64,000 nt of DNA from Aneurinibacillus sp. GTDB lineage: Bacteria; Bacillota; UBA5301; DYFA01. A model generated the notes under the pieces. It was not told the origin of the DNA. It made no database searches and was given only the letters and a program-made list of their open reading frames with translations. The stretch covers positions 24,131 to 88,130 of the forward strand of contig DYFA01000027.1 in NCBI GenBank assembly GCA_020725425.1. The letters are read 5' to 3'. Both the position numbers and the translations under genes were made by a program. Below are positions 29,271 to 55,635 of this stretch, in pieces. Position 1 is the stretch's first letter. Every line of letters starts with the position of its first letter.

Positions 29271-30479
29271 TTGCGGACCTGGGACCTGATCGTGGTGGGG
29301 GCGGGGCCGGCCGGCGCGGCGGCCGCCCGGGCGGCCGCCCGGGCCGGCGTCGAGACGCTGATCCTGGAGGCGGAGGAGTTTCCCCGGCCGAAACCGTGCG
29401 CCGGAGGTCTCTCGGCAGCGGCCCTGAAGGAGCTGGGGGAGCCGCTCCCGCCCGGAGTGGCGGGGCGGGCGTGCCGGGCTGTGCGGCCTCGCTACGGCGG
29501 CTTGGCGGTTACAGTGCGCCGGGAGGAGACGCTGGTCGAGGTGGTCCACCGGGACCGGTTCGACGCCTACCTGCTCTCCCTGGCCCGGCAGGCTGGGGCC
29601 GAGGTGAGGCACGGGACCCGGGTCACCGCCGCCGAGCCGGGGAGCGACGGGGTGACCTTGCGCACTGACCGGGGGACGTGGCGCGCCCGGGTGGTCGTGG
29701 GAGCCGACGGCGCCCGGAGCAGGGTCGGCCTGGCGGTCCGCCCGCCGTTCCCCCGCCGCGACCTCGGGGTGTGCCAGGTCGGGGAACTGCCCCTCCGCCC
29801 CCAGGAGTACGAAACCTTCTTCGTTGATGGGCTCGAGGTGTGGTACAGCAACCCGGAGAAAGGCTACGGCTGGATCTTCCCGCAGGAGGCCGGCCTGAAC
29901 GTAGGCATCGGCAGCGTCGCCCGGTACTTGCCTTCGCCCCGCCGCGAGCTGTCGCGCTTCCTGGCCCTGGCCGGGCTCCCGGAGCCGGCGGCGGTCAAGG
30001 GGGCAGTCCTGCCGCTCGGCGGGCGGAATCATCCCGGGCAGGCCGCGCGGGTGCTGCTGGCGGGGGACGCTCTGGGCGTGGCCGACCCTTTCACCGGTGA
30101 GGGTATTCGTTATGCCCTGCTTTCGGGGCGGCTGGCTGGCGAGTGCGCTGCCGCGGCGCTTCACCGCTCCCCCGCCCACCCGGACCTCTCCTCCTACCCC
30201 GCGCGGTGCTGGGAGAGCTTCGGGGCCGACCTCCGGTATGCCCGCCTCTTCGCCCGCCTCTACCTCTCGCTCGATCAGCGGCTCAACCGCTTGGTCTTCC
30301 GCCACCCCGGTCTCTTCTCCCGGGTGGCTGACATCATGCAAGGGAAGGGCACCTACCGCGATCTCGTGGGGAAGCTCGGGAGTCATCTGCCCGGCTACTG
30401 GCTGCGGGGTCTCATGAACCGCCAAACCCGTGAGTTTAGTCGAACAATTTCGGAAAGAACGTTGCGACCACCAGGATGA
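29271..30479 (+). CDS. Geranylgeranyl reductase family FAD-dependent oxidoreductase
   Basis: FAD dinucleotide-binding motif DLIVVGAGPAGAAAARAAARAG..LILE. TTG at 29271 lies 8 nt after AAGGAGG. The track ATG at 29241 has no ribosome-binding site. Confidence 0.7.
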   Translation: MRTWDLIVVGAGPAGAAAARAAARAGVETLILEAEEFPRPKPCAGGLSAAALKELGEPLPPGVAGRACRAVRPRYGGLAVTVRREETLVEVVHRDRFDAYLLSLARQAGAEVRHGTRVTAAEPGSDGVTLRTDRGTWRARVVVGADGARSRVGLAVRPPFPRRDLGVCQVGELPLRPQEYETFFVDGLEVWYSNPEKGYGWIFPQEAGLNVGIGSVARYLPSPRRELSRFLALAGLPEPAAVKGAVLPLGGRNHPGQAARVLLAGDALGVADPFTGEGIRYALLSGRLAGECAAAALHRSPAHPDLSSYPARCWESFGADLRYARLFARLYLSLDQRLNRLVFRHPGLFSRVADIMQGKGTYRDLVGKLGSHLPGYWLRGLMNRQTREFSRTISERTLRPPG

Positions 30480-33261: not shown

Positions 33262-33281
33262 AGTCCAGGGCAGTCCAGGGC
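33262..33281. repeat. Tandem direct repeat 2 x GTCCAGGGCA between divergent promoters
   Basis: Exact 10-mer repeated in tandem immediately upstream of the trp -35 element. Confidence 0.4.
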
Positions 33282-33289
33282 AGTTCCCT

Positions 33290-51368: not shown

Positions 51369-52043
51369 ATGAAGAGGACGAGGCGCACGTTGGGGATGGC
51401 AGCCGTAGGACTTTGGCTGGTGTTGGCTCTGGGAAGCCCGGCCTGGGCTGCGGTGGGCGTGATCGAGACGACCGCCGGTGAGACCCTGGAGGGACAACTG
51501 GCCGAGGAGTTCGTCTTCCTCGAGAGCCCAATCGTGGGGCAACTCACTCTCGCAGCCAACCAGGTGACGCGGGTCACGATCTCCCCCGGGAAGGTGGAAC
51601 TGGCCGGGGGGGACGTGCTCTCCGGGACCATCAAGAACGAGCTGATCCACTTCACGACCGAGTTCGCCGCCGTCGCCATCCGCACGGACAAGGTGCGCAG
51701 TCTCACCGTGAAAGACGTGACCCTGCCGGCGGGAGCGCCGGGCGGTGTCGAGGTGCGATTGCGCAACGGCGACCAGGTCCGGGGGGCCTTGACCTTCGAC
51801 CGGGCTGCCCGGCCGAGCGTCGGGGTGTCGACCAGCTACGCCGGGACGGTCAGCGTGGCGCTGGGCGAGATCGCCGACATCCAGTCGACCGGCGACCAGT
51901 ACCTGGTCACCATGCGGGACGGGTCCCGGCTCACCGGCGCTATCACCAACGCCTTCTTCGTCCTGCGGACCGCTTACGGGGAACTGGTTCTCCCTCGGGC
52001 GGCCATCGCCAGCTTCACCTTTCCCAAGACCGTCAAGAAGTGA
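51369..52043 (+). CDS. Secreted protein consisting of the same two-module domain as the N-terminus of the upstream gene
   Basis: Signal peptide. Module 1 (IETTAGETLEGQL...VLSGTIKNE...KVRSLTVK) and module 2 (NGDQVRG...GDQYLVTM...LPRAAIASFTF) match the upstream protein (e.g. LPRAEVASIVF). Confidence 0.55.
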   Translation: MKRTRRTLGMAAVGLWLVLALGSPAWAAVGVIETTAGETLEGQLAEEFVFLESPIVGQLTLAANQVTRVTISPGKVELAGGDVLSGTIKNELIHFTTEFAAVAIRTDKVRSLTVKDVTLPAGAPGGVEVRLRNGDQVRGALTFDRAARPSVGVSTSYAGTVSVALGEIADIQSTGDQYLVTMRDGSRLTGAITNAFFVLRTAYGELVLPRAAIASFTFPKTVKK

Positions 52044-52839
52044 GTCGGGTGTGGTAGGCGGGCAGACGCACGAGTTCCACCTCGCCGGCGACGGCGAGGT
52101 GGTCGCCTTTTACGAGGAGGGCTCCGGCCACGCCGGGGACGGTGAGGGCCCAGTCGGCCGCCGCCTGGAGGTCCGCCGCGGAGTGCACCCGGTTGCCGGC
52201 GGCGGTGGCCACCGCGTCGGCCAGCGCGGCGTCCGGGGCCACGACTACCGCCGCGTCGGCACTCCCGAAGCTGAGGGACGGCCCGACCGTCCCGGCGGAG
52301 GTGCAGACGCCGGTGGGCAACTTCTCCGGGGGGAGGCGGAGGCCGAGGAGGCCAGTGAAGGGGGATTCGCCGGCGAAGACGGCGACGGTTAGCGGCTGCC
52401 GGGAGGCCAGGTAGAGGTCGCCGCCGTTCTCAATCACCACCTCGGAAGTCTGTTCTCGCAGCTTCTCCCCGACCTCCGCCGCGATAGCTCCGGCCACCGC
52501 CGCCATCGGCCCTACACCGGCGGCTTCCGCAGCCCGGGCCATGCGTCGGACGAGGCGGGGCGCATGGGGCGGCACCGGGCGCGGGGCGAGGGCGGTCCAG
52601 AAGGCGGGGTCCACGGCCAGAAAGGCTTCGAGGCCCCGCCGCGCCTCCCGGACGAGCTGTTCCACGAAGCGCCGCCAGGCGGCGACGTCCGCCTCCCGTC
52701 CCCCACCCCCTCCGGCTGCCGGCCCCAGGCGGACGAAGAGGTCCGTCTCCTGGATCCGGACCTCGAAGGAGACCAGGTCCGGCGCCTCCCGGGTCCAGGT
52801 GCGGTAGGTCCGCCGAACGTACGAGCGGGGGTGGCGCAT
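52033..52839 (-). CDS. UPF0280/COG2122 (ApbE-like) protein, a frequent partner of COG1900 in homocysteine biosynthesis clusters
   Basis: Family-level recognition from gene context and the Gly/Ala-rich C-terminal half. Confidence 0.5.
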   Translation of the reverse strand: MRHPRSYVRRTYRTWTREAPDLVSFEVRIQETDLFVRLGPAAGGGGGREADVAAWRRFVEQLVREARRGLEAFLAVDPAFWTALAPRPVPPHAPRLVRRMARAAEAAGVGPMAAVAGAIAAEVGEKLREQTSEVVIENGGDLYLASRQPLTVAVFAGESPFTGLLGLRLPPEKLPTGVCTSAGTVGPSLSFGSADAAVVVAPDAALADAVATAAGNRVHSAADLQAAADWALTVPGVAGALLVKGDHLAVAGEVELVRLPAYHTRLTS

Positions 52840-53254: not shown

Positions 53255-54421
53255 CTACTCCTCTCCTTCCGCCTGCCGGATAGTCAACGGCCGGAACGGG
53301 GTGGTGGCCGGGAGCGGCTGAACCGGCGGGTTCAGGGCGAACCGGCCGGCCCGCACCTCCTCCCGGAGCAGAGCGGCGATCCGGCGGGCCTTGGCCAGGC
53401 TGCTCAGGGGAGCAGTGGGAACGCGCCGGCCCTGCAGGGTCACGGCGCCGCTGCGCAGCTCGGCGTAGCTTACCTGCGCCAGCGCCGGCCGGGACCGGAC
53501 GGGGACGCCGTAATCGTAGACGCTGGTCAGGATATCCTTGTCCCGGATGGCCAACTGGGCGGCGAGGTCCTGGTCCAGTACCGGGATAGGGACGCCGACA
53601 CCGACGTAGAGCGTCACCCCGTAACGGTGGAAAACCGCCGCCCGGAGGTACTCGCGGCTCATCTCCTTCAGGTTGCCGATCAGCGCCAGGGTCCCCGCCC
53701 CGCCCAGCGGCACCCCCTGATCTGTCCGCTTGACGGCCGGGTTGTGCTGCGTCCCCTCCCAGGCCACGTAACCCTGGGCGCCGCCGAGGAAGACCCGTGT
53801 GCCGACCCCGATGGTGCGGTAGTACGGGTCGTTCAGGAGCGGGCTCAACTGGCCGGCGGTGGAGTAGGTGACGTTGCCGTACCTGGGCAGGAGAGTGCCC
53901 ATGTAGGTGTAGATGGTCCGGTCGGACCCGTTGGTCGCCGCAGCGTAGTTCTGGTAGGCGTTGCGGGGGTTGAAGAGATAGGCCTGGTTGACCTCGCGCA
54001 GGCTCACCCAGGTCTCCACCTCGCGCCGGGGGTAGCAGTCGGTTCCCTGGGAGACCGCCCGCAGCCGTACCCGTTTCCCGGCCACCAGTTCCTCGATGAC
54101 GTGGGCCCCGCCGTAGGTCGGGTCGAGTTCGGACTGCTCGGTGGCGCCGAGGTAGGCGTCCACGGCTGCCAGGCCTCCATAGGCCGGAACGCCGTTGAGC
54201 CAGACCCGGCTCATCTTGATCGGCGGGTCGGCGTGCCCGAAGTTCAGAAAAGCCCCGGAAGAACACATGGCGCCGAAGGTGGCGGTGGTGACCACGTCCA
54301 CCGTCTCGGCGGCCCGGTCAACCCCCTGCTCGTCGACCGCCTTCAGGAATTCCTCCTTGGTCAGGACGACCGCTTTCCCTTGGCGTATGCGGTGTGCGAT
54401 CTCTTCGTAGCTCTTGGCCAT
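53255..54421 (-). CDS. COG1900/DUF39 homocysteine biosynthesis protein (sulfide-dependent route)
   Basis: Characteristic N-terminus MAKSYEEIAHRIRQGKAVVLTKEEF...VDVVTTATFGAMCSSGAFLNFG...WLNGVPAYGG.AAVDAYLGAT. The gene is preceded by a SAM riboswitch. Confidence 0.7.
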   Translation of the reverse strand: MAKSYEEIAHRIRQGKAVVLTKEEFLKAVDEQGVDRAAETVDVVTTATFGAMCSSGAFLNFGHADPPIKMSRVWLNGVPAYGGLAAVDAYLGATEQSELDPTYGGAHVIEELVAGKRVRLRAVSQGTDCYPRREVETWVSLREVNQAYLFNPRNAYQNYAAATNGSDRTIYTYMGTLLPRYGNVTYSTAGQLSPLLNDPYYRTIGVGTRVFLGGAQGYVAWEGTQHNPAVKRTDQGVPLGGAGTLALIGNLKEMSREYLRAAVFHRYGVTLYVGVGVPIPVLDQDLAAQLAIRDKDILTSVYDYGVPVRSRPALAQVSYAELRSGAVTLQGRRVPTAPLSSLAKARRIAALLREEVRAGRFALNPPVQPLPATTPFRPLTIRQAEGEE

Positions 54422-54439
54422 GCCGTTCCCTCCTTGCCG

Positions 54440-54645
54440 GTCTCTGCCCCGCCCCGCGGCGGGGCGTAAAGAAAGCGCCTGTTCCCTTGAGTGGAAAGGC
54501 GCCGGACAGGCCGTTTCTCATCTCTCAGGAACTGCTTCCTGCAGGATTTGGCACCGCACGGCCGGGCCGCCGGTTGCCGAGGCTTCATCGGGCCAGTCCC
54601 TCCACCTCTCGCGATGAGACCTTTGTGGTATGCGGTTGTAGTTGT
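54440..54645 (-). promoter_or_regulatory. SAM-I (S-box) riboswitch with terminator-like expression platform
   Basis: Minus strand reads CUCAUCgcGAGAGGUGGAGGGACUGGCCCGAUGAAGCCUCGGCAACC...GUGCGGUGCCAAAUCCUGCAGGAAG...GAGAUGAGA, which matches the SAM-I core and P1 pairing. It is followed by GGCGCC...GGCGCUUUCUUUA. Confidence 0.8.
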
Positions 54646-54652
54646 TGCTCCT

Positions 54653-54681
54653 ACTCTACCACCTGGACCCTCCCTTGTCAA
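54653..54681 (-). promoter_or_regulatory. Promoter of the riboswitch-controlled homocysteine operon
   Basis: Minus strand TTGACA (54681..54676), 17-nt spacer, TAGAGT (54658..54653). Confidence 0.5.
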
Positions 54682-54707
54682 CCACTATGACATCACCACT
54701 ATGACAT
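54681..54707. repeat. Tandem direct repeat 2 x ACCACTATGACAT abutting the -35 element
   Basis: Exact 13-mer repeated with 14-bp periodicity (54681-54693 and 54695-54707). Confidence 0.5.
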
Positions 54708-54825
54708 TCACTTTGTGACCGGGTGGGTGGAGACTCGCACCGGGGCGGGTCATGCCCGGCCCTCGGGCGGCGTAGGATTCTGGCAGGCCGCCGGAGAAAG
54801 CTACCGGCGACGGAGGGACAGCCCC

Positions 54826-55635
54826 ATGGAATGGCCGGACGAGGTAAAAGGGCTGCTGGAGGCGTTTCCCGGCGAGGTCTCGCTGGCGGTCGAGGTCCTG
54901 CCGGAGGGCGGGGGACCGGGGGCGCGGCTGAGCCACCGGGCGGAGGAGGCTTATCCGGCGGCGAGCCTGATCAAGCTGCCGGTGCTTCTTGCGGCGTTAG
55001 AGGCAGCCGAGCGGGGAGAGCTGCCGCTCGAGCAGGAAGTGGCGGTAGGGGGGGAAGCTACCGGCGGGGCCGGGGTGGTGGAGCACTTCCACCCCGGGAC
55101 CCGCCTTACCCTGGGCGACCTCCTCCTTTGCATGACCGCGGTCAGCGACAACGCCGCCACCAACCACGTGCTCGACCTGGTCGGGTTCGAGGCGGTGAAT
55201 GCCCTGTCCAGCAGGTTGGGGCTGAAGGATACTCTCCTGCGCCGGCGGATGATGGACGCCGCAGCGCGGGCCGCGGGGCGGGAGAACACCACCACCGCCG
55301 CCGACATGCACCGCCTCCTGCGCCAGTTGGTCCGTCCGGAGCTGGTCTCGCCGCGGGTGGCGGCCCACGCCCGCCGGCTGCTCGCGCTTCAACAGTTGAA
55401 GCTGGGATTCGGCACTTTCCTGCCCGAGGAGCGGGTCGCCCACAAGACGGGGGACTTGGCGGGTCTCTTCCACGACGCGGGCCTGGTGGACCCGGAGGGG
55501 CCGGTGACGGTGGTGTACGCCTTCCTCTCCAGGGGGGTGGAGAACCTCGGCGAGGCCTCGGTGGCTGCGGGGCGGGTGGGCCAGGCCGTGGCGGCGTGGG
55601 CGGCGTCCCTGGCCGGGGAGGGGCGCGGGCGATGA
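54826..55635 (+). CDS. Class A beta-lactamase-like serine hydrolase
   Basis: S-x-x-K (ASLIKLP), SDN and KTG (HKTGD) motifs. ATG 9 nt after GGAGGG. The track ORF 54715/54723 starts are unsupported. Confidence 0.7.
   Translation: MEWPDEVKGLLEAFPGEVSLAVEVLPEGGGPGARLSHRAEEAYPAASLIKLPVLLAALEAAERGELPLEQEVAVGGEATGGAGVVEHFHPGTRLTLGDLLLCMTAVSDNAATNHVLDLVGFEAVNALSSRLGLKDTLLRRRMMDAAARAAGRENTTTAADMHRLLRQLVRPELVSPRVAAHARRLLALQQLKLGFGTFLPEERVAHKTGDLAGLFHDAGLVDPEGPVTVVYAFLSRGVENLGEASVAAGRVGQAVAAWAASLAGEGRGR

Follow-up and report, generated by a model that had tools for sequence, protein, structure and literature searches.

The window, by which we mean the whole 64-kb stretch of DNA analyzed, carries a three-gene operon on its minus strand, preceded by a riboswitch leader and by a promoter that abuts a tandem repeat (Table 1). 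The operon starts with the gene for HcyBio (DUF39/COG1900), a sulfur-incorporating homocysteine biosynthesis enzyme, whose start codon lies 94 nt past the end of the aptamer. It is followed after 3 nt by a gene encoding a NIL domain together with a 2x[4Fe-4S] ferredoxin and, after 1 nt more, by a gene for a UPF0280/ApbE-like protein, which also matched NF003323 at 275.1 bits against a cut-off of 271.

DUF39 is needed for homocysteine formation (PMC4045070). The operon resembles the sulfide-dependent homocysteine pathway of anaerobes (Desulfovibrio Dde_3007) in having the same two families in the same order, with UPF0280 in addition here. It differs from the known HcyBio/NIL-ferredoxin module in that its genes lie in an uncultured high-GC Bacillota MAG (GCA_030019095.1) and are under S-box control. 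We take MA1821/MA1822 to be the methanogen counterpart of the HcyBio/NIL-ferredoxin (COG2122) pair. The order of a PF01837 gene followed by a NIL and 4Fe-4S ferredoxin gene is common to the window and the related loci L002 and L162 to L165. Among the HcyBio homologues, P0008, P0010, and P0085 are fusions of HcyBio to a 4Fe-4S ferredoxin (467 to 563 aa), matching the adjacent NIL-ferredoxin gene here.

Divergent from the operon, a class A beta-lactamase-like gene is the first of a cluster with MR_MLE-family (enolase-superfamily), NlpC/P60, and YkuD genes. Just upstream of it lies a block, (C/G)TAGCTT(TCTCC)GGC...AATCCTACGCC, that is conserved in all four related genomes and contains TAGGAT when read on the plus strand. 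This block, for which a search against Rfam gave no match, could be a promoter, leader, or operator of the beta-lactamase-like gene.

Table 1. Positions of the features described in the text; those without a locus prefix are window positions.
Feature	Position	Strand	Basis or remark
UPF0280/ApbE-like protein, 268 aa, third gene of the operon	52033..52839	minus	PF27030 AbpE_bact
NIL domain + 2x[4Fe-4S] ferredoxin, 136 aa	52841..53251	minus	PF09383 and Fer4 families
HcyBio (DUF39/COG1900), 388 aa	53255..54421	minus	PF01837, E 6.2e-155; gene call
RBS AAGGAGGG	54428..54435 (54435-54428)	minus	read from sequence; 6 nt before the ATG at 54421
Second hairpin, GCCCCGCC-GCGG-GGCGGGGC	54446..54465 (54465-54446)	minus	fold
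Intrinsic terminator, 10-11 bp stem with one bulge (54503-54474), then UUUCUUUA (54474-54467)	54467..54503	minus	fold
Predicted antiterminator	54481..54532	minus	prediction, RNAfold of 54545-54465, -27.9 kcal/mol
SAM-I (S-box) aptamer, full length	54515..54620 (54620->54515)	minus	RF00162 cmscan match
Extended -10, TGgTAGAGT (hexamer TAGAGT 54658-54653)	54653..54661	minus	promoter scan and alignment
-35 hexamer TTGACA	54676..54681 (54681-54676)	minus	promoter scan and alignment with relatives
Proximal copy of ATGTCATAGTGGT	54681..54693 (54693-54681)	minus	exact match; about -47..-35 from the predicted start
Distal copy of ATGTCATAGTGGT	54695..54707 (54707-54695)	minus	exact match; about -61..-49 from the predicted start
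Possible older degenerate unit AAAGTGAATGTCA	54702..54714	minus	putative; weak alignment by eye; overlaps the 5' half of the distal copy
Conserved block before the beta-lactamase-like gene	54769-54804; L002:9673-9707; L162:3030-3064; L164:2985-3020
Class A beta-lactamase-like gene, divergent	54823..55635	plus	PF13354, E 7.5e-54
2 x TTGAACATTACT	L085:373-401		ends near the -35
2 x ~15-nt unit containing GCTTGAGAAAA	L088:5649-5680		ends near the -35
3 x CGAGTCGAAATC	L051:9641-9685		ends near the -35
2 x 17-nt unit, AGAAGTTTCATAA..	L113:565-599		promoter without a riboswitch
2 x TTTATTGA	L016, -12..+4 of its -35		overlaps the -35

The first-pass annotation of this DNA had described a SAM-I core on the minus strand with P1 pairing CUCAUC/GAUGAG and had proposed an Infernal comparison with RF00162. 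We confirmed this identification by cmscan, which matched RF00162 at 88.8 bits (gathering score 44.4; E 9e-20) over model positions 1-108 of 108, without truncation and with P1 formed by UCUCAUC/GAUGAGA. All helices from P1 to P4 are present in the cmscan alignment, with only 3 non-canonical positions, and the four-helix junction was reproduced by a minimum free energy (MFE) fold of the aptamer alone (-46.3 kcal/mol). RF00162 is the sole Rfam family that cmscan found in the whole window. The match was recovered again in E-value mode, and the permissive E-value scan gave no other Rfam family in the intergenic region at E<=1. The MFE fold of the whole leader is uninformative, as the aptamer is missing from it and the z-score reaches only -1.93; piecewise folds were taken in its place.

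Downstream of the aptamer, the GGCGCC/GGCGCU hairpin that had been noticed earlier is the stem of a predicted intrinsic terminator, with arms GGCGCCUUUCC / GGAACAGGCGCU (fold -15.9 kcal/mol) and UUUCUUUA behind it. A simple terminator scan did not list it, probably because the stem has one bulged C. The terminator is also the consensus structure across 6 relatives, with 11 pairs, 2 of them showing compensatory changes. When P1 was left out of the fold, GUUCCUGAGAG (54532-54522), the 3' side of P4/P1, was predicted to pair with CUCAAGGGAAC (54491-54481), which makes up the terminator loop and 3' arm. This plausible antiterminator and the terminator would be mutually exclusive, as expected of an S-box expression platform.

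The second stable GC hairpin, also reported earlier as lying before the ribosome-binding site, is present between the U-tract and the RBS and consists of 8 G-C pairs closed by a GCGG loop. Its place is taken by different GC hairpins in L002 and L162 and by no more than a weak hairpin in L164. The hairpin might stabilize the RNA or cause a pause.

The leader is similar to the attenuation-type S-box leaders of the Bacillus subtilis met and cys genes, based on its full-length match at twice the gathering score, the four-helix aptamer, a P1 predicted to compete with an antiterminator, the terminator with its U-tract, and the methionine-pathway operon downstream. Nothing essential differs at this locus, although the U-tract is interrupted (UUUCUUUA) and there is an additional 8-bp GC hairpin between the terminator and the RBS. 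We regard membership in the SAM-I family and the attenuation logic as secure, with very little room for doubt. Judged from its sequence, the locus appears to be an ordinary SAM-sensing riboswitch that would switch off a homocysteine-synthesis operon. It is one more well-behaved S-box leader.

The promoter proposed in the first-pass annotation, TTGACA-17-TAGAGT, was also found by our promoter scan. With a 17-nt spacer and the preceding TG, it is the one such site in 54300-54900, against 0.0 expected in shuffled sequence, and transcription probably starts near 54646, about 7 nt past the -10. In the alignment with the relatives L002, L162, and L164, (G/C)GTTGAC, the TG-extended -10, the AGGAACAACAA start region, the aptamer, and the terminator are all conserved. 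GGTTGAC is kept in L002 and L162, with CGTTGAC in L164, and the extended -10 of the relatives reads TGGTAGAGT, TGGTAGATT, or TGGTACATT.

By protein identity, the closest relatives are L002 (87%), L162/L163 (83%), L164 (82%), and L165 (77%). The sequence of L165 reaches no farther than 121 nt ahead of the gene, and of the aptamer it includes just the 3' part. A metagenome scan for closer relatives gave none above 67% identity, and the 90% protein cluster has one member. The MAGs of PRJNA950955 that contain L002, L013, L023, and L039 are labeled Betaproteobacteria, Patescibacteria, or Bacteroidota, and their HcyBio loci are Bacillota-like, with identity to the window protein of up to 87%; their taxonomic labels look unreliable.

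The first-pass annotation had placed a 13-mer twice, immediately before the promoter. Two exact copies of ATGTCATAGTGGT (plus-strand form ACCACTATGACAT) are indeed there, but the fit is not quite as described: the -35 hexamer begins with the T that ends the proximal copy, and one G (54694) lies between the copies. Because of this single separating base, the repeat has a period of 14. Counted from the predicted start near 54646, the two copies cover -61 to -35. In the sequence from -61 to -36, ATGTCATAGTGGTGATGTCATAGTGG, neither A nor T forms a run of 3 or longer. The repeat has 41% GC, compared with 68% for the window, and no other A+T-rich DNA lies upstream of the promoter. Within each unit is a short palindrome, ATGTCAT, and an inverted repeat, TGTCA-N7-TGACA, overlaps the -35.

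The exact pair is not a product of chance. No further copy with up to 2 mismatches lies in the 64-kb window. The 10 kb past the window held none in noncoding DNA and one 2-mismatch match inside a coding region, so that about 74 kb of the same genome was covered. Across 80 genome loci we found nothing beyond scattered single matches (up to 2 mismatches), and a search of viral contigs with the 27-mer gave no match. About one short tandem duplication of the same type is found per 20 to 30 kb. Of near-perfect ones with periods of 10 to 30, we counted 3 in the window and 69 across the 2.04 Mb of related loci; a slightly relaxed definition gives a density of 0.094 per kb in all DNA and of 0.37 per kb in DNA free of ORFs. 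The two others in the window, at 33262-33284 and 29318-29344, have periods of 10 and 12, so such events are common here. A single duplication of this kind in an intergenic region is unremarkable.

Comparison with the relatives locates the repeat outside the conserved part of the promoter. The 13-mer does not occur, even with up to 2 mismatches, in the loci L002 and L162 to L165, and the repeat is absent from the orthologous promoters of L002, L162/L163, and L164; similarity to the relatives stops exactly at the -35. In L162 and L164, the beta-lactamase-like gene and the HcyBio promoter are separated by motA-motB (L162:3184-4734 and L164:3131-4738, compared with 54708-54822 of the window). There, the TGA stop codon of motB falls inside the -35 TTGACA, which makes -36 to -60 coding DNA in both. 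The window and L002 lack motAB at this place and share the beta-lactamase-proximal part of the spacer, and the repeat is in the window only. This distribution of motAB points to a junction, left by a deletion or an insertion, directly ahead of the -35, and the absence of the repeat from L002 suggests that it arose after the split from L002. The repeat is also carried by L167, a Logan assembly, which is 100% identical to the window's genome over 19.5 kb and therefore the same strain, not independent evidence. With the core conserved and the repeat absent in the relatives, and the upstream flank coding in two of them, the control logic that this clade conserves does not include an upstream operator.

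The reading that we favor, and consider fairly probable as a whole, is a canonical S-box leader beside a repeat that is a recent slippage duplication without a conserved regulatory role. The sigma-A-type promoter TTGACA-17-TGgTAGAGT would start the transcript near 54646. When SAM is abundant, the aptamer (54620-54515) would close P1, and the hairpin at 54503-54474 with UUUCUUUA would terminate transcription. At low SAM, the 3' strands of P4/P1 would pair with the terminator loop and 3' arm as an antiterminator, and RNA polymerase would then read into the HcyBio, NIL-ferredoxin, and UPF0280 genes, allowing homocysteine to be made. The repeat itself would be a young, lineage-specific duplication, generated by replication slippage, of the flank that the loss of motAB created upstream of the -35. 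It would stand outside the conserved control logic and contribute at most a modest tuning of promoter strength.

The first-pass annotation had suggested an additional protein regulator or a UP-like element acting on top of the riboswitch. Neither is supported by these analyses: the closest orthologous promoters conserve the core and lack the repeat, motB coding sequence lies upstream of the -35 in two relatives, about 74 kb of the same genome has no second site, and the sequence is without the A/T tracts of a UP element. The main interest of the repeat is as a warning: perfect direct repeats next to promoters look regulatory, but this one is evolutionarily young when set against close relatives.

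One observation against pure neutrality is that the repeat occupies the exact zone of UP elements and activators. Repeats of this kind could be promoter-tuning elements, in which an A+T-richer flank was duplicated and recurrently selected in strong S-box/HcyBio promoters. They would act through a larger contact surface for the alpha-subunit C-terminal domain or by pushing unfavorable upstream DNA away. We consider this unlikely, even though the location at -61 to -35 and the GC content of the repeat relative to the window agree with it. The UP-element consensus consists of a distal AAAWWTWTTTT and a proximal AAAAAARNR at -59 to -38, bound by the alpha-CTD. The repeat is like the UP elements of sigma-70/sigma-A promoters in position (-35 to -61) and relative A+T richness, but it lacks A- and T-tracts and is not conserved. 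The relatives have a short AAAAC at about -39 to -45, which is motB coding sequence.

Other HcyBio promoters also lend support to tuning. In distant Bacillota, unrelated tandem repeats reach to within about 3 nt of the -35 in such promoters, namely in L085, L088, L051, and L113 (-3 to +3), and perhaps in L016, with periods of 8 to 17 and 2 or 3 copies (Table 1). About 0.23 abutting cases would be expected in 62 promoters with a 10-nt target, given the noncoding density of 0.37 per kb (Poisson p of about 0.002 for at least 3). In a second count, 4 of 195 tandem repeats lie directly beside a promoter with a score of 11.5 or more, where random positions would give 0.45 (p of about 0.01 with the window left out). 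Besides the window, 3 or 4 cases were therefore seen against 0.23 or 0.45 expected (p of about 0.001 to 0.01), but these statistics are post hoc and come from a data set centered on one gene family, with p ranging over about 0.001 to 0.04 and reaching about 0.04 under a short-spacer null. Among 166 other consensus-like promoter matches, the sole abutting case was L113, itself an HcyBio promoter.

The history of these repeats bears on both readings. In L113, the unit that was duplicated is the ancestral flank, of which the relative L103 has a single copy, and the relative L109 keeps only a part (AACATTAC) of the L085 unit; both agree with tuning. L024 lacks the L051 repeat. The duplications are lineage specific, and none is conserved in sister lineages, which argues against tuning. 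The analogous repeats of L085, L051, and L113 being likewise missing or single copy in their nearest relatives favors recent duplication, as proposed for the window. The periods of 12, 12/15, 14, 15, and 17 bp are also out of helical phase. The repeat units of the window, L085, L088, L051, and L113 do not recur elsewhere in their own loci. A transcription factor motif shared by these units was considered and rejected, as they have only a vague -35-like TYGARA/TGWCA likeness.

We treat the abutting repeats in HcyBio promoters as a lead and not as a result. Their recurrence is a hint that selection or a mutational hotspot, and not neutrality alone, is at work. That tandem duplication of the 12 to 17 bp immediately before the -35 recurs through independent events in near-consensus S-box/HcyBio promoters strikes us as doubtful. 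If true, it would reflect selection for quick promoter tuning, by lengthening or shifting the upstream contact zone, or a mutational hotspot at the upstream edge of a heavily occupied sigma-A promoter. Should the pattern hold in a large survey, it would describe a simple, fast route of promoter evolution or a hotspot linked to replication or transcription.

It is more doubtful still that the 13-mers form a direct-repeat operator at -61 to -35 for a lineage-specific activator or repressor, which would add a protein-level signal (sulfide, redox state, or cysteine) to SAM attenuation. Two perfect 13-bp copies do lie against the -35, in a zone bound by class I/II activators and many repressors, and the ATGTCAT palindromes and the TGTCA-N7-TGACA inverted repeat agree with an operator. 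Tandem direct-repeat operators beside the -35 include the MetJ met-boxes, PhoB/PhoP boxes, and VirR boxes. Our repeat shares with these the abutting or overlapping of the -35 of a biosynthetic operon, but its period is 14 bp, where theirs are 8, about 11, or 21, and its sequence is unrelated. The 14-bp period would also put the two sites on different helical faces. Moreover, no cognate regulator, regulon, or conservation was found among the operon-adjacent genes, the approximately 74 kb searched, and the orthologous promoters, respectively: no regulator gene lies in or adjoining the operon, the nearest being for an OmpR-type response regulator about 9 kb away; no other noncoding site with up to 2 mismatches was seen; and no orthologous promoter conserves the site. 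The perfect identity of the copies points to a recent origin rather than to a maintained operator. Likeness to the Spo0A box and to WalR, PhoP, and omega-heptad motifs was also considered and rejected, as spacing or sequence did not fit.

Least probable of all is that the repeat is an upstream promoter element of the divergent beta-lactamase-like gene or a scar, left by target-site duplication or by repair when motAB was lost: it lies 115 nt upstream of the plus-strand ATG (54823) in a shared 400-nt intergenic region, beside a rearrangement junction just upstream of the -35 (motAB in L162/L164 and not in the window or L002), and a pair of 13-mers 1 nt apart looks like a duplicated target site, but L002 has the same motAB-less junction without the repeat, no plus-strand promoter was found near the repeat, the locus has no transposase or IS remnants, the 27-mer lacks viral matches, and the three copies in L051 fit slippage better than target-site duplication.

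Many aptamers (e.g., that of L051) escaped a strict regular expression for the SAM-I core, and we substituted an nhmmer profile built from SAM-I cores, which matched 75 of 165 fetched HcyBio loci. Upstream sequence of at least 350 nt was available for 129 distinct loci, and in 51 of these a SAM-I riboswitch lies within 450 nt upstream of the HcyBio start codon, so the sulfide-dependent HcyBio operon is very often SAM-I controlled in anaerobic Bacillota, which helps annotation but is no surprise. Almost all HcyBio SAM-I leaders have a near-consensus TTGACA-17/18-TGnTAnnnT promoter 20 to 35 nt before P1. Because both the arrangement and the near-consensus promoters are common among HcyBio loci, the riboswitch, promoter, and operon of the window are ordinary. 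A search of the open-access literature for COG1900/MA1821 together with a riboswitch found functional DUF39 papers only, and none describing the linkage. Several HcyBio loci have a second SAM-I riboswitch within 3 to 7 kb, controlling another gene (L025:12585-12699, L072:16398-16508, L075:6847-6958, and L116:8652-8760), which suggests clustered S-box regulons.
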